From: Polyangium sp. y55x31
Lineage (GTDB): Bacteria > Myxococcota_A > Polyangia > Polyangiales > Polyangiaceae
Length of the DNA stretch: 64,000 nt
Reading direction: 5' to 3'
Assembly: GCF_029946505.1 (NCBI RefSeq)
Contig: NZ_JARZHG010000009.1
Span: 42,927 to 106,926, forward strand
The position numbers were made by a program, and so were the translations under genes. Within the stretch, counting starts at the first letter, position 1. Each line of letters starts with the position of its first letter. Shown piece after piece: positions 647 to 54,395 of the stretch. A model generated the notes under the pieces. It searched no databases. It had not been told where the DNA came from and saw only the letters and a program-made list of their open reading frames with translations.

Positions 647-670
647 AGCGACGCAGAATCGCGTAACCAC

Positions 671-718
671 AAAAAGGCGCCGCCCGCGCCGTCGCGAGGA
701 CGACGCGGGCGGTTTTTT
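671..718. terminator. bidirectional rho-independent terminator between convergent genes
   Basis: AAAAA, then GC-rich stem GCGCCGCCCGCG...CGCGGGCGG, then TTTTTT. The hairpin is flanked by an A-run and a T-run, so it reads as a terminator on both strands. It lies between the stop at 646 (+) and the stop at 757 (-). Confidence 0.5.
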
Positions 719-756
719 CGAGGCGCGAGGGGCTCGCGCCTCGGCCGTTCAGGGTC

Positions 757-5082: not shown

Positions 5083-5297
5083 GATTCCTCCACGCCAGAA
5101 TCTTCGTGGTGACCCCGCAGGCGAGCGCCGCGAGCGAAGTACGTTTTCGGTGATCTCGGACAAGGATTTGGCGCTCGTCGCGCCGCGTACACCCCCTGTA
5201 CCCCGTTCCCGCACGGAAGGGAAGCCGTTCCAGGCTTCGCCGCGGCGTGTCCCCCGCCCCGCCGTCCTCGTGCTCGCGCCCTGGATCCGCTACGAAG

Positions 5298-11229: not shown

Positions 11230-11237
11230 GAAAGGGG

Positions 11238-22196: not shown

Positions 22197-22317
22197 TTTT
22201 ACAGGACGCACCCTCCTCCTGCCCTCCCGGCCCCCGCGACGCGTGGGGCCGGGGGCGCCCTGGACGATCCCAGCAAGAATTCGACGCGAGTCACGAATAT
22301 CCGCCCCTTTCGTGGGG

Positions 22318-25300
22318 ATGGACCGCGTCGAACTTTGCGCCGATACTTGGCGCCCCATGCTTCCGGGCCAGGTTGTCGACGGACGGTTCGTCGTCGAAGG
22401 AGTCGTCGGCCAAGGCGGCATGGCCCGCGTGTTTCGTGCGACCGACCGCACGACGGGCGAGGTCGTCGCCCTCAAGGTCCTGCTCGAAGAAGAAGCGGCG
22501 AACGTCGAGCGCTTCGAACGCGAGGCGGAGATCATGGCCGCCCTCCAGCACCCCGGCATCGTGCGGTACGTCGCGCACGGCCGCGAGGGAAGCTTCCCCT
22601 ACATCGCGATGGAGTGGGCCTCGGGGCAGAGCCTCGACCGGCGCATCCAGAGGCAAACCCTGCCGATCGACGGCGCGGTGCGGCTGCTACGTCGCCTCGC
22701 GGAGGCGCTCGCGATCGCGCACGAGCGCGGGATCGTGCATCGGGATCTGAAGCCCGGGAACGTGATCCTGCTCGACGGGGATCTGGAGCGGCCGAAGATC
22801 ATCGATTTCGGCATCGCGCGGCTCGGCGGGGCCACCAAGGAGCTGACGCAAAAAGGCGTCTTGCTCGGGTCGATGGGCTACATGGCGCCGGAGCAAGCGC
22901 GCGGCGCGCAGAGCCTCGACGCGCGCGCGGACGTGTTCGCCCTCGGCTGCCTGATGCTGCACGCGCTGACGGGCAAGCGGCTCTTCGAGGGCGGTGATTC
23001 GCTCGCGTACCTCGTGCGCGTGGTCGTCGAGGACGCGCCGAGGCTACGCACGATGCGGCCCGACGCGCCGCCGTGGCTCGAAGCGCTGCTCGCGCGGATG
23101 CTCGCGCGCGCGCCCGCCGAAAGGCCGGCGAACGCGGGCGCGCTCGCGCTGGAGATCGAGCGGTCGCTCGATGCGGATTTCGACGAGACCACGATCGAAG
23201 CCGTATCGCTGCCAGCCGGCGCACTCGGAGCGCACGAGAGGCGCGTCCGCTGCGTGCTCATCGTGCGGCTGCCGGAAGCGCCTGGCGCGCCTTCCGCGGG
23301 AAAAACCTCGCTCGAAGAGGTCGCCGCGGGGTTCGGCGGGACGGTCGACGAGCTGCTCGACGGGCACTTGCTCGTCACGTTCCACGGCTCGGGCGCGGCC
23401 ACGGACGAGGCCTCGCGGGCCGCGAAATGCGCGCTCGCGTTCGCGGATCGGGTCGACGGCGAGCGCTCGGCGATCGTCGCGGCGGAGAGCGCAGGCGAGG
23501 CGCCGGCGCCTTCGACGATCGAGCCCTTCCTGCCCATGCTCTCGCGCGCGCCGCGCGACGCGATCGCGGTCGACGACGTGACTGCGGGCCTGCTCGGCGC
23601 GCGCTTCGACGTGAGCGGCGACGAGCAAGGCCTCTTCCTGCTCGGCGAGCGTGACGTCGGCGAGCCCGCGCGGACGCTGCTCGGCAGGCCCACGCCGTGT
23701 GTCGGCCGCGACATGGAGCTCTCCGCGATCCAGCGCATCTTCGAGGCGGCCGAGCGCGAGCGGGCGCCGCAGGCGGTGATCGTCACGGGTGAGGCGGGGA
23801 TCGGCAAGTCACGCCTGCGGCACGAGCTCTTGCGCTGGGTCGGCGAGCGAGGCCGGCCGGTGGAGATCTGGATCGGACAGGGAGATCCGATCGCGGCGGG
23901 TTCGTCGTTCGGCTTGCTCGCGCGGGCGCTGCGGAGGGCGGCGAACGTGACGGCGGGCGAGCCGCTCGAGGTCGCGCGGCGCAAGCTCCGAGCGCGCGTC
24001 GGCCGTTATCTCGATCCGATCCGCGCCGCGTCCGTGGCGGAGTTTCTCGGCGAGGCCGCGGGTTTGCCCTTCGAGGACGAGGGCCGCCCGGGCCTCGTCG
24101 CGGCGCGGCGCAACGCGACGCTCTTGGGCGACCGGATCCGCCGATCGTTCGAGGAGCTCGTGGTGGCCGAGTGTCGCGCCGGCACGCTCCTCCTCGTGCT
24201 CGAAGACCTGCATTTCGGCGATCTTCCGAGCTTGAACCTCATCGATGCGGCGCTCGCGCAGCGCTCGCCGCTCGTCGTGCTCGCGCTCGGCAGGCCCGAG
24301 CTCGCGCGGACGTTCCCGGACCTCTGGGCTGCGCGCGGGCCGCTCACGATCTCGCTCGCGCCGCTCGCGGACGGCGACAGCCAGAGGCTCGCGCGCGCGG
24401 CGCTCGGGCCGCGGGCGAAGAACACGGTGATCACGCAGATCGTGGAGCGCGCGGGCGGCAACGCGTTTTTCCTGGAGGAGCTCGTGCGCGCGGCCGCGCG
24501 TGGCCGCGATCGAGCGCTGCCGGAGAGCGTGATCGCCATGGTGCAAGGCACGCTCGAAGAGCTCGATCCACGCGCGCGGAGGGCCCTCCGCGCGGCGAGC
24601 GTCTACGGCGACGTGTTCACGGAAGGCGACGTGGCGGCGCTGCTCGGCGAGGAGACGCGCGACGTGGCCGAGCTCTTCGGCGAGCTCTGCACGCGCGAGC
24701 TTCTGGAGCTTCGCGAGGTGAGCCTCACGCGGCACGAGAACGTCGTGGAGATGTACTCGTTCCGGCACGCCTACGTGCGCGAGGCGGCGTACGCGATGCT
24801 CACGGACGAGGATCGCGTGCTCGGGCACAAGCTCGCGGCGCGCCGCCTCGTGGCGGCCGGAGAGCCCGATCCGACACGCCTCGCCGAGCACCTCTTCCGC
24901 GCCGGTCAGCTCGACAAAGCGATCACGCATTTCTCGCGTGCGGCCGAGCAAGCGCTCCTCGGCGGCGATCTCGGCAAGGCCCTGTCCTGCGCCGAGCGCG
25001 GGATCGACTGCGGCGCGCTCGGCGACGATCTCGGCCGCCTGCTCGTGATCCAGGCCGAGGCGCACAGGTGGCGCGGCGAGAACGTCGAGGCCATGCGGAA
25101 AGCGGAGCGCGCGCTCACCGTGCTGCCGCGCGGCACCGACGCCTGGTGCGTGGCCGCGAGCGAGGTCACCTCGTGCGCGACGACGCTCGGCGATCCGGGC
25201 ACACTCGACCCCGTGGCGGCGGCGCTCTCCGAGGTCGTCTCCGCGCCGCAGGCCTCACCGAGGCCGACACAGATCACCGCCTGCGCGCGCGTCGCCGCCG

Positions 25301-26190
25301 CATTGTACGTGCTCGGACGACATGACCTCGCCGAGTCGCTGCACGAGCTCGCGGCGGGGCACGAGGAGGCGCGGCGGGAGCCGTCCACACGCGCGCGCCT
25401 GCACGAGGTCGACACGCTGCGGGCGCACACGATGGGGGACGCGGCCGGCGCGGTCGCCGCGGTGGAGCAGGTCATCCAGGCCTTCACGGAGATCGGCGAT
25501 CTGCGCAGCGTCGCGCTCCACCGCTCGAACCAGGCCGCGCTGCTCAACGCGATCGGCGCCTACGTCGAGGCCGAGTTCGCCGCGCGCGCCGCGCTCGAAG
25601 CGAGCGAGGCGCAGGGGCTCTCGCAGATCGTGAGCGCGGCCCAGCAGAACCTCGGCTTCTCCCTGGCGCACACGGGCCGGCTCGACGAGGCCCAGACGCT
25701 CCTCTCGCGCAGCATCCGCGACGCCATCCTCCAGAGAAACCGCAGGCTCGAAGCCGGCGCGCGCATCTACCTCGCGATCGCCGCGCTTTATGCGCGCAAG
25801 CTCGACATCGCGGACGCCGAGGCGCGCGCGGCCGCGGACGCGCTCGCGGGTTTGCCCCTCCACGCGTATGCGCAAGGCGTGCTCGCGATGGTCGAGCTCT
25901 TGCGGGGTCGCGCGCGGGAAGCGCTGCACATGGCGGAGAAGGCGATCAGCGCGCTCGCGGCGCGCGGGGGCGCGGCCGAGGAGGGCGAGGGGCTCGTGCG
26001 GCTCGCGTTCGCCGAGTCGCTCGCTGCGACGGGCGACACCGAGGGCGCGCGGCGCGCGCTCTCCATCGCGAGGCGGCGCATCGAGGAGCGCGCGGCCTTG
26101 CTCACGCGGCCTGCGCATCGGCGGAGCTTCGTCGAGCTCGTCCCCGAACACAGGCGGACCCTCGATCTCGCGGCGCACATGGGGGTGTAG
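22318..26190 (+). CDS. Ser/Thr protein kinase fused to AAA+ (STAND/AAA_16-like) ATPase and C-terminal TPR-like helical repeats (PknK/MalT-like architecture), copy 1
   Basis: Kinase motifs GQGGMARVF, HRDLKPGNV, IDFGIA, YMAPEQ. Walker A VTGEAGIGKSRL. About 600 aa of helical repeats. ATG at 22318; alternative start at 22357. Confidence 0.85.
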   Translation: MDRVELCADTWRPMLPGQVVDGRFVVEGVVGQGGMARVFRATDRTTGEVVALKVLLEEEAANVERFEREAEIMAALQHPGIVRYVAHGREGSFPYIAMEWASGQSLDRRIQRQTLPIDGAVRLLRRLAEALAIAHERGIVHRDLKPGNVILLDGDLERPKIIDFGIARLGGATKELTQKGVLLGSMGYMAPEQARGAQSLDARADVFALGCLMLHALTGKRLFEGGDSLAYLVRVVVEDAPRLRTMRPDAPPWLEALLARMLARAPAERPANAGALALEIERSLDADFDETTIEAVSLPAGALGAHERRVRCVLIVRLPEAPGAPSAGKTSLEEVAAGFGGTVDELLDGHLLVTFHGSGAATDEASRAAKCALAFADRVDGERSAIVAAESAGEAPAPSTIEPFLPMLSRAPRDAIAVDDVTAGLLGARFDVSGDEQGLFLLGERDVGEPARTLLGRPTPCVGRDMELSAIQRIFEAAERERAPQAVIVTGEAGIGKSRLRHELLRWVGERGRPVEIWIGQGDPIAAGSSFGLLARALRRAANVTAGEPLEVARRKLRARVGRYLDPIRAASVAEFLGEAAGLPFEDEGRPGLVAARRNATLLGDRIRRSFEELVVAECRAGTLLLVLEDLHFGDLPSLNLIDAALAQRSPLVVLALGRPELARTFPDLWAARGPLTISLAPLADGDSQRLARAALGPRAKNTVITQIVERAGGNAFFLEELVRAAARGRDRALPESVIAMVQGTLEELDPRARRALRAASVYGDVFTEGDVAALLGEETRDVAELFGELCTRELLELREVSLTRHENVVEMYSFRHAYVREAAYAMLTDEDRVLGHKLAARRLVAAGEPDPTRLAEHLFRAGQLDKAITHFSRAAEQALLGGDLGKALSCAERGIDCGALGDDLGRLLVIQAEAHRWRGENVEAMRKAERALTVLPRGTDAWCVAASEVTSCATTLGDPGTLDPVAAALSEVVSAPQASPRPTQITACARVAAALYVLGRHDLAESLHELAAGHEEARREPSTRARLHEVDTLRAHTMGDAAGAVAAVEQVIQAFTEIGDLRSVALHRSNQAALLNAIGAYVEAEFAARAALEASEAQGLSQIVSAAQQNLGFSLAHTGRLDEAQTLLSRSIRDAILQRNRRLEAGARIYLAIAALYARKLDIADAEARAAADALAGLPLHAYAQGVLAMVELLRGRAREALHMAEKAISALAARGGAAEEGEGLVRLAFAESLAATGDTEGARRALSIARRRIEERAALLTRPAHRRSFVELVPEHRRTLDLAAHMGV

Positions 26191-27338: not shown

Positions 27339-27932
27339 GTGAGCTACGGCTTGATGGTGTATGCGGTCAAGTTCGACAAACTGAAGCCGGTCTTCGGCAG
27401 CGGCGACGACAAGCTGCGGCGGCAGATCTGCGGCCGGTTCAAGGAGCGGCTCGCGCAGCAGGCGGACTGGTTCAAATCCGAGATTGCAGGCGGCGCGCCG
27501 ACGCCGTTCGACGCGGTGAAGGCCTTGATCATGGGCACGGTCCCCGAGAAGGGGCACGGCTTCATGTATGCGTATGCCTACGAGCGGATCGTCGAGCACT
27601 TCGGCCGGTACCTCGACAACAGCAGGTTCTCCTCGATCCGCTGGTCGTACATGGAGGCCGTCGAGGAGGGCTGGAAACAATCAGGGCTCGACGAGACCTT
27701 GCCCTTCCGTGATCTCCATCTCGGCAAAGCGCTCTGCGTCTTCCCCACCCCGAACGATTTTCCCTCCACGGGCTACTGGAGCCCGGAGCAGGTCGTGGCG
27801 GGAAACAAGCGTTTCGGGGAGATCCAGATCAGCGCGGAAGAGGACTACATAAAGGAAGCGATCTTGGCCGTGCGGGGCTGGCTCAGCCAGGCGGCGGCGA
27901 AGGGCGAAGGAATCGTCGCGTTTTATTACTGA
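27339..27932 (+). CDS. hypothetical protein
   Basis: 197-aa ORF, 10 nt after the previous stop, with Y/W/F-rich balanced composition. No motif recognised. Confidence 0.5.
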   Translation: MSYGLMVYAVKFDKLKPVFGSGDDKLRRQICGRFKERLAQQADWFKSEIAGGAPTPFDAVKALIMGTVPEKGHGFMYAYAYERIVEHFGRYLDNSRFSSIRWSYMEAVEEGWKQSGLDETLPFRDLHLGKALCVFPTPNDFPSTGYWSPEQVVAGNKRFGEIQISAEEDYIKEAILAVRGWLSQAAAKGEGIVAFYY

Positions 27933-27936
27933 CGAT

Positions 27937-28674
27937 TCATTCCTTCGGCAAGCGCGCGCCTTTTCGATAATCGCCCATCACCTTCCGGATCTCGTCCTCG
28001 AAGAGGAACGTCCCCCAGTACTGCTCCACCTCGCCGTCCAGCAGGAAGCCGAGGTGCAGGTGCCAGCTCCCGTTCGCCACGCCGGACGTCCCGATCCGAT
28101 CGCCCCCCTCGATCCGCGTCCGCGGCTTCTTGCCCTCGGGCTGCACGTGCGCGAGCTCGGAGAGGTGTGCGTAATAGATGTGCGTGATCTTGCGGTTTCC
28201 GTAGGGGATCGGGGTATCGAGCTCGATACGTACGCAATAAGGCGTATCACGCGGCCCGGTCCAGAGCGTGTGTCCGGCCTCGGCGTAATCGACGTACCCC
28301 GAGGCAATCGCGTACACCGGCTTTTTGATGCCCATCACGTCGAGCCCGGTATCGGCCCGGTAGCCGGCGATGACCCCCTCGGGCATCGGATTGAACAAAC
28401 CGCTGGGCAACTTGCTCGACCTCTCCCCCGCCGGCCAAAGAGGCACCGCCGGTTCGTCACGAACGGGTTCCAGAAAACCAACAGAGATGACGTTCGCGGT
28501 GGAGGCGAGCACGCGGGGGGTGGGGGGCGTCGAGGAAGGCACGGCGATGTCCGCATCGCGAACCTCGCCTTGGGCGGGCCGAGCGGTGCCCCCCACCGAA
28601 ACAGAACAAGCCGGGAACAAAACGAGCCCCAAAGTTCCAAGCACCCGAGCGGAGGTGATCTTCATGTCGGTCAT
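27937..28674 (-). CDS. secreted M23-like (LytM/lysostaphin-type) metallopeptidase-domain protein
   Basis: Signal peptide MKITSARVLGTLGLVLFPAC. C-terminal ...HIYYAHLSE...GTSGVANGSWHLHLGF resembles the M23 HxxxD...HxH motifs. Confidence 0.5.
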   Translation of the reverse strand: MTDMKITSARVLGTLGLVLFPACSVSVGGTARPAQGEVRDADIAVPSSTPPTPRVLASTANVISVGFLEPVRDEPAVPLWPAGERSSKLPSGLFNPMPEGVIAGYRADTGLDVMGIKKPVYAIASGYVDYAEAGHTLWTGPRDTPYCVRIELDTPIPYGNRKITHIYYAHLSELAHVQPEGKKPRTRIEGGDRIGTSGVANGSWHLHLGFLLDGEVEQYWGTFLFEDEIRKVMGDYRKGARLPKE

Positions 28675-30514
28675 GGCGCTTCGGGATCATCGGGTGACGG
28701 ACGCGTTTCGTGACAACGTCGATCGCGGAAGCGTCTCCGAGGTACCATCCCTCTCCCTCGCGATGACCTCGAAGGCCCCTCCCGCCGCGGACGCCGTCCC
28801 TGTCCCCGATCTCCTCTGTGAAGAGGCCGAAGTCCGCGTCGATCTCGACGAGCTGCACCAGACCTTCGCCTTCGCCTTCGCGCTCGGCACCTCCCCGGAC
28901 GCCTTCGAGCGTGTCCTCGCCGTGGCCGCGCTCCCGTCCTCGACGTGGGATCGCAAGGACTTCGAGCGGGACATCTTCCTCGAAGACCTCCTCACGCGCG
29001 CGCTGCGCATCCGCATCGGCGGGCGCGCCGTCACGCCTTGCTTGCCCTATCTCCTCCGCGCCATCTCCGAGCCGCCGACCGACCTCCGCGTCGTCGCCTT
29101 CCGCCAGCGCATCCTCGCCGAGCTCTCGGAAAAGCCCGAGCTTCGCCGCGACTTCGAGCGCGTCTACCAGCGCCTCGTCACCTTGCGCGCGGCCTTCTGC
29201 TCCGAGGGCGGGTCGCGACGCGGCGGCGATACGCATCGACGCCTCGAAATCCTCCGGTCCGTGCAGGAGGTCGTCGAGGACCTCGCCGGCGCCTTCGACG
29301 GCGCGAGCTCCGGCGTCGCGCGGATCCGCGCGTTTGGCCTCGCCGTGAAGGAGAGCGAGGCGTACAAGCGCCTCGAGGCCCTCCTCGATCACGAGCGGCA
29401 CCTCGGCACCGTCGACCTTCGGGTCCGCGTCGGCGTCGACGGCACCTTGCGCACCTTCCAGATCGTCCGCATCCGCGAAAACCAGGAGAACCCCCTCCAC
29501 ACCTCCGCGATCGCTCGCTTCTTCTCGCGGCTCCGCCTCTTCTTGCGCGGATATCGCGTCACGCCCGGCGAGGTCACCGAGCGCCTGCTCGACGACGTCT
29601 TCAGCGGCCTCGAGCGATCCGTCTCGCTCTTCGTCCAGCTCCTCGGCGACATGGAGTTTTACCTCGCCGGCCTCGGGCTCGCGGACCTCGCGCGGGACAA
29701 GGGTTTGCCCGTTTGTCTCGCCGAGCTCGTGCCCCCCGGCGAGGCCGGGCTCGCGATCGATCGCCTCTACAATCCGCTCCTCCTCGCCGGCAAAGGAAAA
29801 CCCGTCCCCTCGAACCTCGCGACGGCCCACGGGGATGCCGTCGTCATCGTCACGGGGCCGAACTCGGGCGGCAAGACGCGCCTGCTCCAGTCGATCGGCC
29901 TCGCGCAGCTCCTCGGCCAGGCGGGGCTCTTCGTCACGGCCGAGCGCGCGGTCTTGCCGCAGCTCGGTGGCATGTTCGTCTCGCTCATCGAGGAGGCGCG
30001 CAGCGATCAGCCGGAGGGACAACTCGGCATGGAGCTGCTCCGGATCCGCAGGCTCTTCGAGGAGCTCGGGTTCGGCTCGCTCGTGCTGCTCGACGAGCTC
30101 TGCTCCGGGACGAACCCCTCCGAGGGCGAAGAGATCGCGCGGCTCGTGATCTCGCTCCTGCCGGAGCTGAAATCGCCGGTCTTCTTGACCACGCACCTCC
30201 TCACGCTGGCGACGCACCTCGAAGAGGAGCCGCCTGTCCCGCACCTCGAATTTTTGCAAGTCGATCTCGACGAAAACGAGCGCCCCACGTACGGGTTCCG
30301 GCCGGGGGTCGCCAAGACTTCGCTCGCGCACAAGACGGCCGCGCGGCTCGGCGTCACGCGGGACGAGCTCGCGGAGCTCATCGCCAAGAAGAAGCGCGCC
30401 GAGAGCCTGGGGGAGCGGCCGTTGCCGCAGGGCCGCCGCATCGCCCGCCCGATCGCTCCAGAAAAGAGCGCCGCCGTTTCAGAACGGCGCAGGCTCCGCG
30501 CGACGCGGCGCTGA
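28664..30514 (+). CDS. MutS domain-V-only ATPase (MutS2-like ABC-type ATPase with novel N-terminal region and no Smr domain recognised)
   Basis: Walker A VTGPNSGGKTRLLQSIGL. MutS-type Walker B LLDELCSGTNPSEGE. Then FLTTHLL (the TH motif). About 330 aa of unrecognised N-terminus. ATG at 28664 with a GGAGGTGA SD; an alternative ATG is at 28763. Confidence 0.7.
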   Translation: MSVMALRDHRVTDAFRDNVDRGSVSEVPSLSLAMTSKAPPAADAVPVPDLLCEEAEVRVDLDELHQTFAFAFALGTSPDAFERVLAVAALPSSTWDRKDFERDIFLEDLLTRALRIRIGGRAVTPCLPYLLRAISEPPTDLRVVAFRQRILAELSEKPELRRDFERVYQRLVTLRAAFCSEGGSRRGGDTHRRLEILRSVQEVVEDLAGAFDGASSGVARIRAFGLAVKESEAYKRLEALLDHERHLGTVDLRVRVGVDGTLRTFQIVRIRENQENPLHTSAIARFFSRLRLFLRGYRVTPGEVTERLLDDVFSGLERSVSLFVQLLGDMEFYLAGLGLADLARDKGLPVCLAELVPPGEAGLAIDRLYNPLLLAGKGKPVPSNLATAHGDAVVIVTGPNSGGKTRLLQSIGLAQLLGQAGLFVTAERAVLPQLGGMFVSLIEEARSDQPEGQLGMELLRIRRLFEELGFGSLVLLDELCSGTNPSEGEEIARLVISLLPELKSPVFLTTHLLTLATHLEEEPPVPHLEFLQVDLDENERPTYGFRPGVAKTSLAHKTAARLGVTRDELAELIAKKKRAESLGERPLPQGRRIARPIAPEKSAAVSERRRLRATRR

Positions 30515-30592
30515 TTGCGGCCCTTTTCGGCTGGCACGATCCGTGTTCCCCTGAGGTGCTGGCTTTGGCCTTCGGGAGGAAGAGCAGGGGAC

Positions 30593-33409
30593 ATGGAACG
30601 AACCAGCCGAAAGATACCCGTCACCGAACGGCAATTCTTGTGGGTCCAGGACGACGACAAGGGCGAGGTCACCTTGCACGTCGGTCCCACGATGGTCTCG
30701 CCGACCGCGGCCGATCGGGTCGTCATCGACGACGGAATGGGCGGTTTCCGCGAGGACACCACGGGCAAACCACAAAGCATGGTGGAGCTCGGGGACAACC
30801 AGTACGCGGTCCTCTTCAACCCGCTCCTGGAGAGCGACAGCGGACCGAACGGCCGCTTCAAGAATGGCCGCAACGAGTCGCGCCCGCTCCGCAATGGCAC
30901 GCGCTCGATGATCCCCGGCCCGTGCAGCTTCTACCTGCGCCCCGGCCAGCGCGCCGACGTGCGCGACGCGCACGAGCTCGCCTCGAATCAATACCTCGTC
31001 GTCAAGGTGTACGGCGAGGTCGACAAGAATGCGCCGTATCATGAGGTGACGTCGCGATCCGCGGCGATCACGCGGGCCACGGCGGAGAACCTCGACGAGC
31101 AGCCGACGACCACGGTCGGCGCCGTGGAGCCCGCGGCGCTCAAGCGCGGGCAGCTCATCGTGATTCGTGGCCTCGACACGCAGTTTTACATCCCGCCGAC
31201 GGGCGTGGACATCGTGCCGGATACCTCGATCGACGACAGCGGCGCGGCCATCAGCGCGGCGATCGCGCGGCAGGTGCTCGCGCAGAGCGGCGAGGAGACG
31301 GCCCTGGCGGAGGAATATGCGGCCGACGACGAGTCGACCGCGTTCCGGGGCCAGGCGCGCAGCAAGGTGCCGAACCAGTTCATCGATCAATCGGCGCGCA
31401 TGCGCGGACGCAAGGGGGCTGCGCCCACCACGCCCGCGCCGCAGGCCGCGCCCGCGCCCGCGGCCCCGGCGCCCGAGGCCAAGATCGGGGCCGCGGCGGT
31501 GCAGGATTTGCTCGCATCGTCGGCGGTTCGTCGCGCGCTCGAAGCCGATGCGCGGCAGGCGCGCCTCATTCGCCGCGCGGTCGTGCTCGGCGAAAAAGAG
31601 TATTGCGTGATCGTCGACGCCGACGGCAAGCGCGAGATCAAGGTCGGCCCCGCGCGTGTCTTCCCGGGTCCGTACGACACGTTCATGACCCTCGGCTCGC
31701 GCAATCGTGTCTACGACGCGTACGAGCTTCTGCCGCAGCGCGCGCTCTGGCTCCGCGTCATTGCGCCGATCAAGCGCGCGGACCTCGCGGCGAAATTGCC
31801 CCGCGGCTTCGAGCTCGCGAAGGAAGAGTATTTCCCCGGCGACGAGCTCCTCCTCACGGGCGTCTCGACCTTTTTCGTCCCCTTCAACGAAATCGAGTGC
31901 CTCTCGCCCGAGACCGGCCAGGCCGTCGTGGGGAACGACCATAGCCGCGTCTTCATCGAGGCGATCGGCATCGACCAGAAGAGCGGCATTTACGTGCGGG
32001 ACCTCGCGACCGGCGAGGTGCGCCTCGTGCGCGGCAAACAATCGTACCTCGTCGATCCACGCAAGGAAGTGCAGGTCACGCGCACGGTGCCCGCGGATGA
32101 TTGGAACTTGTGGATCGCCTCGAACGAGCCGCACAAGGAGACCGAGCGGGCCATCACGACGCCCTGGGCGCTCTCGATCATGGTGCCGAACAACACGGCC
32201 GTGCTCGTGACGAGCGCGAATTCGCGCCGCGTCGTGGAAGGGCCTTGTGTGACGCTGCTCGGCTACGAGGAGTCGCTCACCTCGCTCTCGCTCTCGACGG
32301 GCACGCCGAAGAGTGACGAAGACCCTCTCCGCACGTGCTTTTTGCGCACGGTGGGCAACCGCATCTCCGACAAGATCGCCGTGGAGACGGCCGATTTCGT
32401 CAAGATCTCGGTGCGCGTCTCGTATTCGGTCGAGTTCCTCCCCGACCACAAGGACAAATGGTTCAACCACGAGAACTACATCCAGTTCATCGTGGATCGC
32501 CTCCGCTCGATCGTGCGCGGCAAGTGCCGCACGATGTCGCTCTCCACGCTCTGGCCCGAGCTCCCCGCGGTGTTTCGCGACACGCTGCTCGGCGAGCGCA
32601 AGGACGGCGCGCGGCCCGGGCGGCTCTTCACGGAAAACGGCACGTTGCTCTCGGAGGTCGAGGTGCTCGGCGCGGAGATCGAGGACCGCGAGGTCGCTGC
32701 GCTCATGCAGAAGGTGCAGACCGAGAGCGTCACGCTCGCGATCGGCGATCGAAAAGCGCAGGAGGCCCTCGCGTCGGCGAAGCTCCGCGCCGAGGTCGAA
32801 CGACAAACGCAGGAGCTCCTCGCCGAGGCGCGGGTGCGCGGCGCGAAGCTCGAAGAGCTCTCGCGCAAGCTCGCGCACGAGGCGGCGCTCGCGAAGGCGC
32901 GCGAGGAGGAGGCCGTGAACAAGGAGCGGCAATCGCTCGCGGACGCGCGCGAGGCCGATGCGCAAAAAGCCCGGCTCACGCGGGAGAACGAGGAGAAGGC
33001 GGCGATGCTCGACGGCTTCCGCAAAGACGCGGAGGCGCGGGCCGAGGCGCAACGGATCACGCACGAGGTCGAGCTCGCCTACGTGGCGCGGCTGCGCGAG
33101 CTCGAAATCAAGCTCATCGAGGTGCAATCGAGCGCGACGGTGGCCGAGCGCCAGGCCGTGCAGAAGCAGCTCGTCGAGGCCATGGTCGGGCTCGGCGACA
33201 AGCTGCTCTTGACCGAGGTCGCGGGGAACATGAACCTCGTGAGCCTCTTCAAGGGCAAAGACGTCGGCACGATCCTCTCCGAAGTGCTCGGCGGAACGAA
33301 GGTGATGCCCACGCTCCGCTCGATCATCGATGCGGCGGCGAGCCCCGCGAAAGGCGAGCTCGAGGCGGGCGACGCGGCTCGCGTAGTGCCGGGCGCGCCG
33401 ATCGTGTAA
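30593..33409 (+). CDS. major vault protein (MVP) homolog
   Basis: About 940 aa. The N-terminal two-thirds are repeat-domain-like. SFYLRPGQR corresponds to human MVP SFFLQPGEQ. LSLSTGTPKSDEDPLRTCFLRTVGNRISDKIAVETADFVKISVRVSYSVEF is collinear with human MVP [52 protein letters not shown] (shoulder domain). A long Ala/Glu/Arg-rich C-terminal helix fits the cap-helix. The human sequence was compared from memory. Confidence 0.8.
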   Translation: MERTSRKIPVTERQFLWVQDDDKGEVTLHVGPTMVSPTAADRVVIDDGMGGFREDTTGKPQSMVELGDNQYAVLFNPLLESDSGPNGRFKNGRNESRPLRNGTRSMIPGPCSFYLRPGQRADVRDAHELASNQYLVVKVYGEVDKNAPYHEVTSRSAAITRATAENLDEQPTTTVGAVEPAALKRGQLIVIRGLDTQFYIPPTGVDIVPDTSIDDSGAAISAAIARQVLAQSGEETALAEEYAADDESTAFRGQARSKVPNQFIDQSARMRGRKGAAPTTPAPQAAPAPAAPAPEAKIGAAAVQDLLASSAVRRALEADARQARLIRRAVVLGEKEYCVIVDADGKREIKVGPARVFPGPYDTFMTLGSRNRVYDAYELLPQRALWLRVIAPIKRADLAAKLPRGFELAKEEYFPGDELLLTGVSTFFVPFNEIECLSPETGQAVVGNDHSRVFIEAIGIDQKSGIYVRDLATGEVRLVRGKQSYLVDPRKEVQVTRTVPADDWNLWIASNEPHKETERAITTPWALSIMVPNNTAVLVTSANSRRVVEGPCVTLLGYEESLTSLSLSTGTPKSDEDPLRTCFLRTVGNRISDKIAVETADFVKISVRVSYSVEFLPDHKDKWFNHENYIQFIVDRLRSIVRGKCRTMSLSTLWPELPAVFRDTLLGERKDGARPGRLFTENGTLLSEVEVLGAEIEDREVAALMQKVQTESVTLAIGDRKAQEALASAKLRAEVERQTQELLAEARVRGAKLEELSRKLAHEAALAKAREEEAVNKERQSLADAREADAQKARLTRENEEKAAMLDGFRKDAEARAEAQRITHEVELAYVARLRELEIKLIEVQSSATVAERQAVQKQLVEAMVGLGDKLLLTEVAGNMNLVSLFKGKDVGTILSEVLGGTKVMPTLRSIIDAAASPAKGELEAGDAARVVPGAPIV

Positions 33410-33419
33410 CGTCGGCCTC

Positions 33420-34418
33420 ATGTTGCCGAAGACCGGCCCGCGCAGCCGCGCGCGGGCGTGGATCCTCTCGGGGGCGCTCCTCTTCGCGCCCCCCGCCTTC
33501 GCAGGCGATCCCCCGAAACATCCGGCCCCGAACGATCCGGCGCCAAAAGAGGATGCTCCCAAGGACGAACAACCGTACGTGCACAAAGGGTTTGTCTACC
33601 GGAGCACGACCGCGGTGCGTTACAATCCGCTCGGGCTCTCGACGTTCTTCCGCGTCGGCTACCAGCGCCCGCTGCTCGGTCCGCAGGACAGCATCCTCCT
33701 CCAGCGCACGTACATCGGCATCAACGCGGTCACCACGATCACGCCGGCGTACGTCCGCGGAGGGCTGCGCCTCGACGTGCAGCCGCTCGCCTTTCTGCAA
33801 TTCTTGTTCGCCTACGAGGGAATGGCCCTCTTCGGGACGTACGACACGATTCAATCGTTCAAGAACGTCTCCGAGGATTTCGGCGACGTGCGGCAGGTCG
33901 AGCGCGGAAAGCAGGGGCTCGCCTATCCGACGACCGGCGGCATCTTCACGGCCGACGTGATCTTGCAGGCCAAGGCCGGGCCGTTCCTTCTCGTATCGGA
34001 CACGCAGTTCATCCACACCGATTTCACGATCACGCCCGGCGACCGGTTCTATTTCGATCTCCCGTTCGGCATGCTCGCGAAAGACGACGGCTGGATGGTC
34101 TCGAACGAGACGGATCTGCTGTTCGTGACCTCGTTCGGCCTCATGGCGGGCGCGCGACACGGGGTGTACCACACGTTTTTCCCGGCCGAGGTCGTCGCCG
34201 GGGAGGAGGCGCGGGCCGATCAGATCACGCCGATCGAGTTCGCGGGTCCGCTCGTCGGATGGCAATTCCCCGAGCACAACGGGCCCAAACGTTTCAATGC
34301 GCCCGGCATTTTTCTGAACGTGAGCTGGTGGATCCGGAACCCTTATCGAACGGGCCAGGAGGTCGCCGCCACGGTGCCGTACATCGTGGGTGGATTCACG
34401 TTCAAGGGGACGCTTTGA
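33420..34418 (+). CDS. secreted protein, putative outer-membrane beta-barrel (C-terminal ...FTFKGTL)
   Basis: Starts 11 nt after the MVP stop. Signal peptide ILSGALLFAPPAFAGD. Alternating aromatic/hydrophobic pattern. Confidence 0.55.
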   Translation: MLPKTGPRSRARAWILSGALLFAPPAFAGDPPKHPAPNDPAPKEDAPKDEQPYVHKGFVYRSTTAVRYNPLGLSTFFRVGYQRPLLGPQDSILLQRTYIGINAVTTITPAYVRGGLRLDVQPLAFLQFLFAYEGMALFGTYDTIQSFKNVSEDFGDVRQVERGKQGLAYPTTGGIFTADVILQAKAGPFLLVSDTQFIHTDFTITPGDRFYFDLPFGMLAKDDGWMVSNETDLLFVTSFGLMAGARHGVYHTFFPAEVVAGEEARADQITPIEFAGPLVGWQFPEHNGPKRFNAPGIFLNVSWWIRNPYRTGQEVAATVPYIVGGFTFKGTL

Positions 34419-34530: not shown

Positions 34531-34968
34531 ATGGAAAACGATTCGCCGGAACGCATTGCCGTGGGCCCGCACCTCGTGACCATCCTGCCGCCCAACATGC
34601 TCCTGGTCGATTTCGGCTCTCCGCTCGATGGGAACCAGGCAGGCCGCATCCTCGACTTGATGTGGCAAACGGGGTCCCGTCGAGGCCCGCTCAAGGTCCT
34701 GATGGACATCACCCAGGTGACGAACGTGCCCCGGGGCGTGCGGGAGACCATCCGCAGCCGCAACACCGAAAGCACGACCGCGGCCCTGGCCTTCGTCGGC
34801 GCGCGGTTCGGCGTGCGCGTCGCCATCGACATGATCATCGCCGCCGTGCGAATCCTCCGGCCCGACGTGCCCGCGTATCCCCACGGCTTTTTCAGCCGCA
34901 AGGAGGAAGCGCTCACCTGGCTCCGCGCCGCCCCCTCCGCCCCGCGCCGATCGAGCGGGTCCTTTTGA
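34531..34968 (+). CDS. STAS/SpoIIAA-like domain protein (paralog 1)
   Basis: 145 aa. C-terminal FFSRKEEALTWL is shared with the next gene. Family assignment is tentative. Confidence 0.45.
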   Translation: MENDSPERIAVGPHLVTILPPNMLLVDFGSPLDGNQAGRILDLMWQTGSRRGPLKVLMDITQVTNVPRGVRETIRSRNTESTTAALAFVGARFGVRVAIDMIIAAVRILRPDVPAYPHGFFSRKEEALTWLRAAPSAPRRSSGSF

Positions 34969-43214: not shown

Positions 43215-46200
43215 TCAAGCCGCGCCGAGGCACGTGAGCTCATCCCGTCTCCGCCGCAATCGCTCGCCCATCACGTTCGGAATCCGCGACGCCGCTGCCA
43301 GAGCCTTGTCGAGCTGACGCATCGCCCGCTCGCGCTGGCCGAGGCGACATGCATGCATTGCCCGCGCCTCCAGCACCTCGAGGTGCTCCTGCCCCACGCT
43401 CGCGCGGGCCGAGCGGGCTTCGAGCGCCTCCCACGCCGATTCGATGTCCGCGAGGCCGCCCGCGTCGTCCCCCGTCGCGAGCTCGATCATCGCGCAAAGC
43501 ACGTCCTCCGAGGGCGACATCTCGGCCGCGCCGCCGCGTAATGCCGAGGCAATGGCGCGCGCCGTCCGCGCGTCGCCGCGAACGAGGGCGATCCGCGCGT
43601 CGAGCAGGGCGAGCATGGCCGGACGTACGCAGCCGGCCCGCCGCGCCGCGACGGCGAGCGCCGCGCGAATCATGGGCTCGGCGGCCTCGACGTCGTCCAT
43701 CCAGTACAGGTGCTCGGCGAGGTTGTAATGACCCGCGAGCTCCATCGTCGGCTGGCCGAGCTCGCGGCCGAGCTCACTCGTACGCTCGAAGTCCCGGATC
43801 ATGCCCTCGCGATCGCCACGAAGAGCCCGGACCATGGCGCGGGTGTTCCACGCGGCGCCGAGGTGCAAAAGGTCGCCGCGCTCCTCGCAACGGCGAATGA
43901 CCTCGTCGAGCAACGCCGCGGCCTCGTCGACCCGGCCGAGCAAGGGCAATAGGTATCCGAGGAGGAGATGCGCAATGACGTACGTCTCGTATCCCTCGTC
44001 GCCGAGGCGGCTCGCGAGATCGGCCGCGCGCGAGAGCTCGACCGCGGCCTCCTCCTCGCGCTCGGCCCGCACGGCCGAACGGCCGACGCCGAGCAAGAGG
44101 CGCGCTTCGAGGAGCGGCGAGCGCGACGAGAGGGCCTCGTCCTCGACACGCGCGGCGAGCACGCGGCGCTCGGCCTCGCGATATTCGCCCATCCAGTCGA
44201 GCACCATGGCCTCGTCGAGGTAAAGCTCCACGATGATCGACGCCTCCCCGCGCCGCGCCGCGCCCTCGCGCGCCCGCGCGAGCTCGCTCAGCGCGTCGTG
44301 AAAGCGGCCCAGGCGAAAACGCGAGAGGCCGCGGCCGCGCTGCGCGAGCGTCGGCAGCTCGCCCCAGAGCGCCTCGGCCTTGCCATAACATCGCTCGGCG
44401 TCGAGGTAATCCTTGCGGGCCGCCGATTGCTCGGCCGAGGCCAGGTAAAACGAGGCCGCCCGCACCGCCACGCCCCCGCGCTCGAAATGTTCCGCCAGGA
44501 CGAGCGCGTCGGCCTCGCCCTTCTCCTCCAGCCATTCGGCCGCGAGGTGGTGGCCGAGCGCGCGATCCTCGTCCGTGAGCATCGCATACGCGCCCTCGCG
44601 CCAGAGCGCCTGCCGGAACGCATATTGAGGTTCGCCCGGAATGCGGCTCTCGCGCTCGCGCGTGACGATTTCGTGCGTGACGAGGGCCGCGAGGTCGCGC
44701 GCGACGGACTCGTCGGCGGCGCCCGCGAGACGCGCGACGGCGCCGCGCCAGAAGACCTCGCCGAGGATGCTCGCGGCGCGCAAGGTGCGGCGCGTGCTCG
44801 GGTCCAATCGTTCGAGGCGTGATTGCACCATCGCCACGACCGTCCCAGGCGGGGTGCCGCCGCGGCCCTCGGCCTCGGCGCGGATGAGCTCTTCCAGGAA
44901 AAACGGGTGCCCCTCGGAGGACGCGACGAGGCGCTCTTCGAGCCCGGCGCGGAGCTCGCCGAGCGCGTGGCGGACGAGGCGCACACAAGCGCGCGGCGAG
45001 AGCTGCCGGAGGCGGACGTCCTGACGGCCGCGGCTCGACCAGAGGCCGGGGAAGAGCTCGTCGATCTCGGGGCGCGCCGACGCGAGGAGGAAGATCGGCT
45101 CGAACGCGAGGCCCTCGAGCGCGGCGTCGAGCGCGAGCAGCGAAGCGCGGTCGCCCCAGTGCACGTCTTCGAGGAGGAGGACCAAGGGTTTGTCCGCGCA
45201 CTCGGCGCGCAAGAAATCGCGGAGGGCGCGCTGCATCTGCTCGCCGCAAAGCTCGGGGTCCTGGCGCGCGGCGCGGAGCGGCAAGTCTTCGTCGTCCGGG
45301 AATGGCACGCCCGCGAGCTCGCCGAGGAAGTTCGCGACGCGACGGCGATCCCGCTCGGGGACACGACGCGTGACGCGGGCGTAGAAGAGCTCGCGGCGGC
45401 GCGCGAGGGGCTCGCCGCCGCGGATGCCCGAGGCGCCGCGCAGGACCTCGGCGAGCAGGCCGAAGCTCGACGCAACACGCAAAGGGTCGCCGCGGCCGAA
45501 CCAGATCTCGGCGGGCTCGACGCTGGCCCGCTGGCGCTCGACGAATTCGTGGAGCAAGCGCGATTTGCCGATGCCCGCGGGGCCGGAGACGACGACGACA
45601 CGCGCGGCCGGCTCGCTCTTGCACGCGCCGAAGGTGAGGTCGAAGAGGCCGAGCTCGTGCTCACGGCCGACACAAGGCGTGGCCTTGCCGAGCAGGGGCC
45701 GCGAGACCTCGAAGCTCGCGCGCTCGCCGAGGAGCGCGAAGCCGCCGCCTTCGAGGGCCTCGACGTCGAAGCGCGCGTCGAGCAGGCCCGCCGTGGTCTC
45801 GTCGAGGGCGATACGCGCCTCGCGGCTCCGCGCGTGGAGGAGCCGCGCGGCGCGGTCGATGGCCTCGCCGACGGGCACGCCACGCGCGCGCTCGCCGAAG
45901 CCCGCGGCGACGGCCATGGCGGCCCCGGGCGCGCGCTCCCAGAGCGCGAGCGCGCAGCGGGCGACGTGGGCGGCGACGTCGGTGGGCACGCGCGTCCGAT
46001 CGATGACGACGGCCGCGGTGCCGTCCGCGAAGACCTCGAGGTGCCCGCCGAAGCGCTCGGCGATCGCGCCGAGGTCGTCCGTCGGCGAGGCGCAGGCGAG
46101 CGTGGTCGTCGGGCCGAGCGCGCCGAGCGCGGCTTCGCGGCGGCCGCGGAGCACGACGCCGAGGAACCTCCGCTCGCCCTCGCCGAGCGTCGATCGGGGC

Positions 46201-47174
46201 GCGGACGAGCGCGGCGCCTCCGAGCTCGGGGGCTCGAGGTCCTTCTCGGCGGCGAGCGCGATCGCCGCGGCCGCGCCGTCCTGCGGCCTCCCGAGCGGAT
46301 CCTTCGCGAGCATGCGGGCGATGAGGCTGTCGAGCCACGACGGCACGGAGGGCGCGCGCTCGCTGAGGCGCGGCGCATCCTCGAAGATGATCTTCGCGAG
46401 GACGGCGATCGTGTGATCGGCGCGGAAGGGCGGCGCCCCGGTGATGCACTCGAACATCAGGCAGCCGAGCGAGAAGACGTCGGCGCTCGCCTTGACGATG
46501 CTGCCGCTGCGGACCTGCTCGGGCGCCATGTAGCTCGGCGTGCCGATGACGGTGCCGGTCTGCGTGATGCGCGAGGCCTCGCCGCAATGGGCGATGCCAA
46601 AGTCGAGGATGCGCGGCTCCGCGACGGATCCGTTCACGAGGAAGACGTTCTGCGGCTTGAGATCACGGTGCACGATGCCGGCGTCGTGCGCGACGGCGAG
46701 GGCCTCGGCGAGGCGATGGCCGAGCGTGACGGCCTCGCGGAGCGAGAGCGGCCCGCGGGCGAGCCTGCGCCCGAGGTCCTCGCCTTCGAGCCATTCCATC
46801 ACGAGCAGCGGGCTCGACGCCGAGGACGTGTCGTAGGCGACGTAGCGGACGATGCCCGGATGCGAGAGGCGCTCGAGAATCTGCGCCTCGCGACGGAAGC
46901 GCGAGAGGCTTTCGGGAGAAACGGCGACGAGGATCTTCGCGGCGACGACGTGACCGGTCACGAGGTCGGTGGCGCGAAAGATTTCGCCCATCCCCCCTGC
47001 ATTGACACGCGCCTCGACGCGGAAGCGCCCACCGAGCACTTCTCCCGGCCGCACGAGGGGAAGCGTAACCCTAGGATTTCCCGCGTCCAGGGACCATCGG
47101 AAAGGAAACGACAATCGATATCCGACCGGGTCGAATCGTAATGGTGTGGAGCCGCCTGGAACGGAGGGCGTCAT
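43215..47174 (-). CDS. Ser/Thr protein kinase - AAA+ (STAND-like) ATPase - TPR-like fusion, copy 2
   Basis: ATG at 47174. Kinase motifs HRDLKPQNV, DFGIA, YMAPEQ. Walker A VSGPAGIGKSRLL. Helical repeats follow. It is collinear with copy 3 at high identity and with copy 1 at lower identity. Confidence 0.85.
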   Translation of the reverse strand: MTPSVPGGSTPLRFDPVGYRLSFPFRWSLDAGNPRVTLPLVRPGEVLGGRFRVEARVNAGGMGEIFRATDLVTGHVVAAKILVAVSPESLSRFRREAQILERLSHPGIVRYVAYDTSSASSPLLVMEWLEGEDLGRRLARGPLSLREAVTLGHRLAEALAVAHDAGIVHRDLKPQNVFLVNGSVAEPRILDFGIAHCGEASRITQTGTVIGTPSYMAPEQVRSGSIVKASADVFSLGCLMFECITGAPPFRADHTIAVLAKIIFEDAPRLSERAPSVPSWLDSLIARMLAKDPLGRPQDGAAAAIALAAEKDLEPPSSEAPRSSAPRSTLGEGERRFLGVVLRGRREAALGALGPTTTLACASPTDDLGAIAERFGGHLEVFADGTAAVVIDRTRVPTDVAAHVARCALALWERAPGAAMAVAAGFGERARGVPVGEAIDRAARLLHARSREARIALDETTAGLLDARFDVEALEGGGFALLGERASFEVSRPLLGKATPCVGREHELGLFDLTFGACKSEPAARVVVVSGPAGIGKSRLLHEFVERQRASVEPAEIWFGRGDPLRVASSFGLLAEVLRGASGIRGGEPLARRRELFYARVTRRVPERDRRRVANFLGELAGVPFPDDEDLPLRAARQDPELCGEQMQRALRDFLRAECADKPLVLLLEDVHWGDRASLLALDAALEGLAFEPIFLLASARPEIDELFPGLWSSRGRQDVRLRQLSPRACVRLVRHALGELRAGLEERLVASSEGHPFFLEELIRAEAEGRGGTPPGTVVAMVQSRLERLDPSTRRTLRAASILGEVFWRGAVARLAGAADESVARDLAALVTHEIVTRERESRIPGEPQYAFRQALWREGAYAMLTDEDRALGHHLAAEWLEEKGEADALVLAEHFERGGVAVRAASFYLASAEQSAARKDYLDAERCYGKAEALWGELPTLAQRGRGLSRFRLGRFHDALSELARAREGAARRGEASIIVELYLDEAMVLDWMGEYREAERRVLAARVEDEALSSRSPLLEARLLLGVGRSAVRAEREEEAAVELSRAADLASRLGDEGYETYVIAHLLLGYLLPLLGRVDEAAALLDEVIRRCEERGDLLHLGAAWNTRAMVRALRGDREGMIRDFERTSELGRELGQPTMELAGHYNLAEHLYWMDDVEAAEPMIRAALAVAARRAGCVRPAMLALLDARIALVRGDARTARAIASALRGGAAEMSPSEDVLCAMIELATGDDAGGLADIESAWEALEARSARASVGQEHLEVLEARAMHACRLGQRERAMRQLDKALAAASRIPNVMGERLRRRRDELTCLGAA

Positions 47175-47203
47175 GGGAAGGGGACTGCACTTTCCGGGTG
47201 GTA

Positions 47204-48034
47204 TCAGGGCAATCCAGTGGTGATCACGAACTTCGTCGTCGCCGAGCTCTGGCCGGGCCGTTCGATGCAGGACGGATAATACTGGCCCGCGCCGTTCAAG
47301 TTCTGGCAGACGTTCGCGCAGGGGCCGACGATGTCGATCATCCCGCACTCCTCGACGGTCCCGCCGGCGCCGAGGTGCCCCACGGCGCAATCGCGCTTCC
47401 AGGATCGCGAGTTCGACACGGTATTGCTGTTGTAGCAGGCGTGAAGGAACGGCGTGGGCGCCCACAGGTTGCCCCAGAATGCGCCTTCGACATCCGGATA
47501 CGCGGCGAGCTCCGGGCTCCCTGTGAGGGTCTTCAAGGGCTCGGTGAGCGAACGCATCGAAATGGTGACGGGCACCTCGTAATAGTTGACGCGGGCCGCC
47601 AGGCAGGCGCTCACCATGTACTGGCCCTGGGTATTGAGCGGACCCGTGGCCCAGCCGGGCGCGAGGCCGAGCTCGCCCCGATACATCTCGTCGTGGACCA
47701 CGTTCGACGCGTCGGTCCACGAGAAGGAAAAACTCTGCGCGGTGGTGAAGGCGCAGCCAATGGCATATTTGAGGAAAGCGCGGGCGAGGGTGCCCTTGGA
47801 TCCCGGATCCTCGATCACCCCGAGCGCAGCGGGATCGAGGGTGTTCAGCGCGATCCCGTTCAGGGCGATCCCGTTCAACGCCAGCGAATTGAGCGCGAGC
47901 GCGTTCGACGACAGATGGTTTCCCTGCACCAGCGCGACCTCGGCCTCCATGACGTCATCGGAAGTCTCGTCGTTGTAAGCAACACAACCAGGAGTCAGTG
48001 CCAAGAGCAACAGCAACAACGGCCAAGCTCGCAT
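47204..48034 (-). CDS. secreted pentapeptide-repeat / Cys-rich domain protein, paralog C
   Basis: ATG at 48034 with GGAGGTG SD. Signal peptide MRAWPLLLLLLALTPGC. ALALNSLALNGIALNGIALN repeats. Conserved C-terminal domain ...ACYNS.TV.NSR...RDCA.GH...ECG.ID.VGPC..VC..LNG...YYP.C...P...T..VITTGLP. Confidence 0.7.
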   Translation of the reverse strand: MRAWPLLLLLLALTPGCVAYNDETSDDVMEAEVALVQGNHLSSNALALNSLALNGIALNGIALNTLDPAALGVIEDPGSKGTLARAFLKYAIGCAFTTAQSFSFSWTDASNVVHDEMYRGELGLAPGWATGPLNTQGQYMVSACLAARVNYYEVPVTISMRSLTEPLKTLTGSPELAAYPDVEGAFWGNLWAPTPFLHACYNSNTVSNSRSWKRDCAVGHLGAGGTVEECGMIDIVGPCANVCQNLNGAGQYYPSCIERPGQSSATTKFVITTGLP

Positions 48035-54097: not shown

Positions 54098-54395
54098 CCA
54101 GAAGGCGGTTGGCGAAGACCGTGGTCCGACGACGACGAGGTCCAGTTTGCCCGCACCGATGCGAGCATACGCGTCGCCGCGACGCGGATCATCTTCTCTA
54201 CGCGGTCCCGACGAACGTCACGCTCGTGGCGGAAGCAGCCGCACGAGCCTCCCGTACCGTCCCGTCACCTCCTCGCACGTCCCCCCGTTGACGGAGCGGT
54301 GAACGGATTTATGGTTCGTTCACGCCTCGGGCCACCGGACCGGCGAAGCCGACCGTGGCGAGGCGCTCTTTCCTGACGTCCCAAGGAGTCCCACG

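Follow-up and report, generated by a model that had tools for sequence, protein, structure and literature searches.

A full-length major vault protein homolog in Polyangium sp. y55x31 whose neighbours are probably incidental

Vaults are among the largest particles of eukaryotic cells, and they have no clear function. Whether bacteria also build vault-like cages is a real question, though not a new one, and it is raised again by a 64,000-nucleotide stretch of DNA from the myxobacterium Polyangium sp. y55x31 (contig NZ_JARZHG010000009.1, positions 42,927 to 106,926 of the forward strand; henceforth the window, with positions counted from its first letter). A preliminary description made from the letters of the window had proposed that one gene encodes a 938-aa major vault protein (MVP) homolog, and that it forms a functional module with a MutS-family ATPase gene upstream and a gene for a signal-peptide protein downstream. 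Does the MVP assignment hold, and are the neighbours partners? The answer that we consider likely is that this is a stand-alone, bona fide bacterial MVP-family gene, that its neighbours are incidental and that its product probably self-assembles.

30593 to 33409, forward strand: MVP-like gene (938 aa), identified by Pfam, PDB and Foldseek matches; the only component that we regard as the feature.

Judged by its predicted product, the gene encodes a genuine full-length bacterial member of the MVP family, collinear with eukaryotic MVP. Pfam placed the MVP_shoulder domain (PF11978) at residues 590–698 (E-value 3.3e-15, 56.6 bits against a cutoff of 25) and Vault_3 at residues 530–584 (1.2e-8, 35.4 bits against 28.8), with a Vault_4 match at residues 457–502 that fell slightly below its cutoff (1.7e-4, 22.2 bits against 22.9). 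Among the sequences in the PDB, phmmer retrieved major vault proteins exclusively, human/rat MVP being the best (1.9e-24), and aligned residues 330–862 with MVP 274–800, the identity in the shoulder being visible by eye. When two clades of the family were combined in one profile (alignment A4, identities as low as 31%), it matched the PDB MVP at 1.4e-44 over MVP 275–801, a span that comprises repeats R6–R9, the shoulder and the cap helix. Structure comparison agreed with this, as the 12 best Foldseek matches of the model were all MVP structures (6e-16 to 2e-12), at only about 20–23% identity, followed by a second tier of HflK/C, flotillin, prohibitin and stomatin (about 1e-5 to 1e-3). No unrelated repeat family appeared among those 12. 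The collinearity and the shoulder with local identity to human MVP, both read from the translation in the preliminary description, stand, with the detectable repeats numbering about seven and not nine.

The gene itself is well delimited. Together with the neighbouring open reading frames (ORFs) at 27937–28674, 28664–30514 and 33420–34418 it shows a coding-type G+C content at third codon positions (GC3, 0.81–0.89), its N-terminal methionine and the 'ERTSRKIPV' start are kept in homologs, and a purine-rich stretch (GGGAGGA/AGGGGA) precedes its ATG. The proteins of Polyangium sp. 15x6 and P. jinanense are 96% identical to it. Neither a signal peptide nor a membrane-spanning segment was predicted in the protein (maximum 19-residue hydropathy 1.28), which is thus predicted to be soluble and cytoplasmic. 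The parts of the protein can be listed as follows.

30593 to 31288, forward strand: N-terminal MVP-type repeats, about three (residues 1–232), from hhalign and from an N-terminal profile against the PDB.
31289 to 31567, forward strand: Ala/Pro/Arg-rich low-complexity linker that splits the repeat array (residues 233–325), from composition and conservation.
31568 to 32359, forward strand: four MVP repeats equivalent to R6–R9 (residues 326–589), aligned to MVP 275–519, with Vault_4 and Vault_3.
32360 to 32686, forward strand: shoulder (SPFH-like) domain (residues 590–698), from PF11978 (3.3e-15); predicted local distance difference test (pLDDT) 80–90.
32687 to 33190, forward strand: cap-helix equivalent, Ala/Glu-rich, about 168 residues (699–866), from DSSP and alignment to MVP 647–801.
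33191 to 33409, forward strand: C-terminal segment with the NMNLVSL motif, then a variable tail and the stop codon, from conservation.

The N-terminal repeats needed the most sensitive comparisons. Pfam gave no match to the isolated N-terminus (residues 1–232). With hhalign, residues 60–208 matched the protein's own residues 326–437, the equivalents of MVP R6–R7, at 93% probability (E 3e-7), and a profile of the N-terminus by itself had MVP in all seven of its top PDB matches, at a marginal E-value (0.011). Because of this self-match and these profile matches we assign the segment to MVP-type repeats, as the preliminary description had done. Averaged over 41 homologs, conservation is highest in the N-terminal repeats (80% mean identity) and the R6–R9 block (82%). 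The 93-residue linker between them (A 28%, R 10%, P 9%) has a mean identity of 39% and low pLDDT; it is a different segment in the clade at 36–41% identity and is missing from an 833-aa relative at the locus that we call L083. Beyond the shoulder, DSSP assigned residues 699–866 to one helix (pLDDT about 80–86; A 20%, E 16%), which bears out the long C-terminal Ala/Glu-rich helix described before. Conservation resumes in residues 867–915 (69%), where A877, M880 and G888 are invariant in both clades and N879, N881, L882, V883 and L885 nearly so, and it drops to 8% in the tail. The full-length AlphaFold2 model, computed with the 41 homologs, was poor (pLDDT 52.8) and usable for residues 590–860 only.

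Set beside eukaryotic MVP (rat and human; PDB 4V60, 7PKZ and 9BW5), the protein has the same order of parts, i.e. repeats, shoulder, cap helix and C-terminal segment, and like it is soluble and free of a membrane anchor. What marks the MVP family was thus found: the shoulder, MVP-type repeats preceding it, the long cap helix and the C-terminal cap segment. The difference lies in the barrel wall, where the nine repeats (R1–R9) of eukaryotic MVP face about three plus four here, the disordered Ala/Pro-rich insertion taking the place of the R4–R5 equivalents. The cage-forming SPFH/band-7 proteins (HflK/C, flotillin, prohibitin and stomatin) share the shoulder fold and the long helix bundle that closes the dome; unlike the window protein, with its seven repeats and no anchor, they are membrane-anchored, one-sided and without MVP repeats.

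From what MVP and SPFH proteins do, we infer that the Polyangium protein could likewise assemble with itself in the cytoplasm. Its repeats and shoulders would pack side by side and its long helices would form bundles, giving a large homo-oligomer in the shape of a dome, a ring or a vault-like shell, with some cargo enclosed or scaffolded by it. With about seven repeats the wall of this assembly would be shorter than that of the eukaryotic vault, and the disordered insertion would project from the wall or into it. How far this analogy carries is a graded matter: that vault-like cages are made by bacterial MVP-like proteins in the first place we hold to be possible at somewhat short of even chances; that this protein forms some cage or ring comes close to an even chance without passing it; and that it forms a closed, two-halved vault, which in the MVP family is a 78-mer shell, is more doubtful than either a cage or a ring of some kind.

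A protein that descends from the same ancestor as MVP might also never close into a vault and instead form an SPFH-like ring or scaffold, at a membrane or nucleoid surface through partners, or an open half-shell. The short repeat array, with its roughly 95 disordered residues in the middle of the barrel wall, would suit such an assembly, as would the SPFH-like shoulder and the match to Band_7 of the L083 relative; SPFH relatives, as the PDB matches are described, are one-sided domes and not two-halved shells. Against it, the protein has neither a membrane anchor nor a hairpin, and Foldseek ranks MVP structures clearly above SPFH proteins. In eukaryotic vaults the N-terminal MVP repeats form the waist at which the two halves meet (rat structure 4V60), and in the bacterial family these repeats are, at 80% identity, among the most conserved parts. 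We therefore regard an assembly that stays open as unlikely.

Is the gene native to bacteria? HMMER, run exhaustively against 1.84 billion representatives, yielded 983 MVP-family clusters (at 50% identity) at E<=1e-3, 490 of them at E<=1e-30, so the bacterial family is, by sequence count, a large one. The preliminary description had called bacterial MVP-like genes sporadic and uncharacterised; the first part has to be given up, while the second agrees with the literature, in which we found neither experimental work on bacterial MVP or vaults nor a link between MutS and MVP. MVP homologs in Myxococcales have already been published in silico, hence this kind of gene is not new. Daly et al. 2013 (PMC3762200) reported such genes from Corallococcus, Plesiocystis (in two copies), Microscilla, Saprospira and further organisms, predicted that the bacterial proteins could dock into vaults and raised their transfer from eukaryotes to bacteria. 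Sokolskyi 2019 (bioRxiv 10.1101/872010) added Enhygromyxa and other homologs and noted band-7 and TolA-like similarities, and in a 2023 preprint (10.1101/2023.11.10.566534) phage MVPs are nested among bacterial ones. The reported proteins (Corallococcus H8MNI3, Plesiocystis A6FXM1/A6FXE2, Enhygromyxa A0A0C2D5V5, Saprospira and Microscilla) share with the Polyangium protein the occurrence in Myxococcales/Myxococcota and the domain calls (MVP shoulder, band-7-like region and coiled coil), all in silico, the likeness being one of distribution and domain calls and not of alignment to those UniProt entries. The tight Polyangiaceae clade (60–96% identity over >120 clusters) was not found discussed specifically in the literature.

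A recent acquisition of the gene from a eukaryote, in place of descent within a native bacterial family, would fit the patchy bacterial distribution and is the scenario raised in 2013. It is hard to reconcile with an identity to eukaryotic MVP structures of just 20–23%, with the depth and breadth of the family just given, with the existence in Myxococcota of two clades at 36–41% identity, at times both in one metagenome-assembled genome (MAG), and with a GC3 of 0.89, which is the level of the host. We give such a transfer very little credence indeed.

Several observations on the distribution of these genes may be recorded here. Two MVP-like genes occur in each of three MAGs, Prado144 (L031 and L070), CAZSDX01 (L059 and L080) and BF4_93 (L041 and L062); in the first two, one gene belongs to the clade at about 60% identity and the other to the 36–41% clade. 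These pairs echo the two copies of Plesiocystis (PMC3762200). Genes with 57–67% identity were also found in MAGs labelled Planctomycetota (L014, L029, L033, L038, L039 and L060) and Thermoanaerobaculia (L016). Either this highly conserved gene has moved between phyla by horizontal transfer, or the contigs come from myxobacteria and were binned wrongly. The 833-aa protein of L083, apart from having no Ala/Pro linker and a match to Pfam Band_7, carries a long insertion before its R9-like repeat.

The second part of the question concerns the company that the gene keeps. Its surroundings in the window are these.

28664 to 30514, forward strand: MutS-related ATPase gene, 616 aa as annotated, with a MutS_V match (6.8e-19); a neighbour that is part of no conserved system.
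27937 to 28674, reverse strand: divergent gene for a candidate M23-like lipoprotein, 245 aa, with a PF01551 match below the gathering score; a neighbour.
30532 to 30547, forward strand: sigma-54-like −24 box TGGCACGATCCGTGTT in the spacer between the MutS-related and MVP-like genes, conserved in five species; a hint only.
33420 to 34418, forward strand: gene for a predicted secreted 12-stranded outer-membrane beta-barrel protein, 332 aa, from a signal-like N-terminus and a model; a neighbour.

The proposal in the preliminary description amounts to a co-transcribed module of the MutS-related, MVP-like and barrel genes, in which the ATPase would load the vault, remodel it or be packaged by it and the barrel protein would add an envelope component. 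The local arrangement invites it: the three genes are co-oriented, with a gap of 78 nt before the MVP-like gene, as had been stated, and one of 10 nt after it (33410–33419; eleven had been counted), and no terminator was detected between them, terminator-like sites being at chance level. The arrangement is kept in the represented cultured Polyangium species and close MAGs (L001–L004, L007 and L088), and an 11,018-bp contig of the Joint Genome Institute (JGI) bears all three families.

To see how far this extends, we compared 80 MVP-like loci with 36–96% identity, from one genome per species (GTDB representatives). With tblastn, the MutS-related gene lay within 8 kb of the MVP-like gene in nine of them, exclusively L001–L009, all of them from Polyangium or from closely related MAGs of the Polyangiaceae; five of the loci (L001–L004 and L007) had the barrel gene within this distance. 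A permissive phmmer search (E<=10), run on every locus ORF of 110 aa or longer, left the other 71 without a homolog of the MutS-related, barrel or M23 proteins; among these 71 is the closest outgroup, Byssovorax, whose MVP is 74% identical. The preliminary description had suggested looking for the trio across Myxococcota: its synteny is not kept there, and outside the genus-level clade the three genes were not found together. Clustering of the flanking ORFs revealed no neighbour family common to the loci across lineages apart from kinases, and the one family that recurred, in 19 loci at variable positions and on either strand, was rejected as a partner, consisting of the ubiquitous myxobacterial Ser/Thr kinases. 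Other genomes show other surroundings. According to gene calls and Pfam, an OPT transporter gene lies downstream of the MVP-like gene in Minicystis rosea, a divergent AAA_15/21 gene upstream of it in an uncultured deltaproteobacterium MAG (contig_6474, 1.78 Mb) and a convergent trypsin-like gene downstream in Byssovorax, three unrelated contexts. The complete chromosome of Minicystis rosea carries the two families 1.3 Mb from each other, with the MVP-like gene at 4.47 Mb and the MutS-related one at 5.79 Mb.

Even inside the Polyangium clade the trio is eroded. P. spumosum keeps the entire block of kinase, D-Ser-dehydratase-like, MutS-related, MVP, barrel and TetR genes. An inserted DUF418 gene lies upstream of the MutS-related one in the Polyangiaceae MAG JADJXL01 (MVP 84% identical); there the MutS–MVP spacer measures 220 nt and a metallophosphoesterase gene occupies the place of the barrel gene, with the frame of kinase and TetR retained. 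A Uma2 endonuclease gene separates the MutS-related and MVP-like genes in L009, where, as in L089, a Metallophos gene stands in the barrel's place. The M23-like gene holds its position only within Polyangium. In this clade the frame from kinase to TetR is as conserved as the trio, and the unrelated kinase, TetR and M23 genes are equally syntenic; that the trio is no better conserved than unrelated genes around it fits vertical inheritance of local gene order. The Uma2-family genes for putative restriction endonucleases near MVP-like genes (L009, 6896–7873, forward strand; L087, 14630–14871, reverse strand) lie in unrelated contexts and are probably mobile or accessory DNA.

As described before, the upstream gene encodes a MutS-family ATPase with domain V (Pfam MutS_V, PF00488, 6.8e-19), and GPNSGGKT, DELCSGT and TTH are all present in its translation; Pfam found neither the mismatch-binding domain I nor a C-terminal Smr domain. 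The ABC-like domain V with Walker A and B is common to it and to MutS2 and the MutS family at large, and its best PDB relatives are MutS2 ATPase domains (7VUF, 2.1e-27). Its scores fall far under the equivalog cutoffs (110 bits against 400 for TIGR01069, MutS2, despite an E-value of 1.1e-31; 55 bits against 642 for TIGR01070), which sets it apart from MutS1 and MutS2. Its N-terminal 330 or so residues, called novel before, indeed gave no confident domain; a weak MutS_III match in one of 29 homologs (E 0.0027) suggests that the segment could be a diverged version of the MutS core and not a new one. The window protein is 100% identical to the one recorded as MutS-related in Polyangium sp. y55x31. 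Proteins of this type (MutS_V only, about 545–620 aa) have thousands of relatives, and those of Chondromyces, Minicystis and Byssovorax are about 60% identical, the family being widespread in Polyangiaceae independently of MVP; in Minicystis rosea the gene has a two-component pair on one side and a DUF433/pentose-phosphate cluster on the other.

As annotated (from 28664), the MutS-related gene shares 11 nt with the start of the divergent M23-like gene (28674), an overlap that the preliminary description had mentioned. The PF01551 match of the M23-like protein is sub-threshold (4.9e-5, 23.9 bits against a cutoff of 28.7); this protein has a hydrophobic N-terminus ending in ...LFPAC. Conservation among the MutS-related homologs starts near residue 46 and most of them have 545–585 aa, and because of these lengths and this onset the ATG at 28763 (583 aa) is plausible as the true start, in which case the divergent spacer would be about 88 nt.

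The downstream gene was correctly described as encoding a signal-peptide protein with a beta-barrel. A signal-like N-terminal segment and a closed antiparallel barrel of 12 strands in a confident model (pLDDT 84) were both found, as expected of an outer-membrane barrel, and the protein is predicted to sit in the outer membrane. No Pfam family matched it, and its closest known counterparts are 12-stranded barrels (autotransporter beta-domains, the COG4313 channel 4RL8, FapF and KdgM/NanC), from which it differs in having no passenger domain and just 4–10% identity. Its family is tiny (21 clusters); a homolog with 59% identity lies beside an M20 peptidase gene with no MVP nearby, and one with 30% is likewise unlinked to MVP. 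Since the MVP-like protein is predicted to be cytoplasmic, the compartments of the two products differ, which counts against a module.

Transcription and accessory signals were also searched. In the MutS–MVP spacer the element TGGCACGATCCGTGTT (TGGCAC-N5-GTGTT) starts 61 nt upstream of the MVP-like ATG, with 45 nt from the end of the box to the ATG, and is invariant in five close Polyangium species; at the more distant loci of the Polyangium clade TTGCGTTACCATGCGC takes its position. It has two mismatches to the sigma-54 consensus, and such boxes occur in the window at chance level (13 found against 15.6 expected), so we did not accept it as evidence; that the MVP-like gene has its own promoter is at most hinted at by this box. 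A scan for the sigma-70 promoter consensus returned no site, and taken together the consensus scans gave neither a useful promoter nor a useful terminator. Eukaryotic vaults have partners in vault RNA, TEP1 (TROVE) and PARP4, for none of which evidence was obtained in the window or beside the MVP-like genes; here Rfam and ARAGORN detected no RNA gene and no tRNA over the 64-kb window, and in the 400 nt on each side of the MVP-like gene the DNA is similar between close relatives only, which argues against a conserved linked RNA as an analogue of vault RNA. PADLOC, run on six local proteins, recognised no defence system, the AriA match being by the P-loop only.

Taken with the absence of the neighbours from 71 of the 80 loci, their restriction to the Polyangium clade and the independent spread of the MutS-related family, these results leave a functional three-gene module quite improbable. 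The MutS-related and barrel genes are most likely ordinary neighbours inherited in the Polyangium clade and not conserved partners, and the MVP-like gene probably stands on its own here, as in all the other lineages that were compared. A narrower version would have Polyangium possess a cytoplasmic vault-like shell of about seven repeats which, within this lineage, has recruited the co-transcribed MutS-related ATPase as a partner for cargo, loading or remodelling. If true, it would mean that this lineage has a bacterial 'vault system' of its own, equipped with an ATPase that handles nucleic acids; we hold this reading as a whole for highly improbable.

Some points weigh against a stand-alone, self-assembling MVP-family gene and should be set against it. 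The count of seven repeats comes from profile alignments and not from structure, and cage assembly rests on homology, the full-length monomer model being of the poor quality given above. In Polyangium sensu stricto the MVP, MutS-related and barrel genes are, after all, co-oriented, closely spaced and free of a detectable terminator, so that their co-transcription within this genus is possible. Finally, at L083 a barrel homolog with 61% identity (4197–5183, forward strand) lies 1.2 kb downstream of the distant MVP-like gene (441–2942, forward strand), and the space between the two holds a lysyl-oxidase gene that runs on the other strand; we take this second meeting of the two families for a weak coincidence.

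The window has a G+C content of 66–74%, and beyond this locus it resembles ordinary myxobacterial chromosome, with genes for a Lon protease, an M36 peptidase, a PhoD phosphatase, a TetR regulator and a sigma-70-region-4 protein. Within 32 kb it holds three paralogs that combine a Ser/Thr protein kinase, an AAA_16 ATPase and TPR (22243–26190, forward strand; 43215–47954 and 50279–54217, reverse strand), and genes of this type also flank the MVP block in P. spumosum and a Polyangiaceae MAG. Two small genes on the forward strand flank the locus, one with a full-length DUF7691 (27339–27932, 3.8e-46) and one with a weak DUF7793 match below the cutoff (34531–34968, 6.2e-5). An 835-aa fusion further upstream (11163–13670, forward strand) joins a serine beta-lactamase-type domain to both domains of the exo-beta-N-acetylmuramidase NamZ.

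What the locus offers, then, is a gene that belongs to a full-length and strongly constrained MVP clade of the Polyangiaceae, one for which genomic context provides no shortcut to function. As the MVP-like gene travels alone, the MutS link gives no basis for placing it in DNA repair or in the handling of nucleic acids. For the question whether bacteria build vault-like cages, the cultured Polyangium strains are reasonable material, and a tractable bacterial MVP homolog could open the assembly, the cargo and the origin of vaults to experiment.

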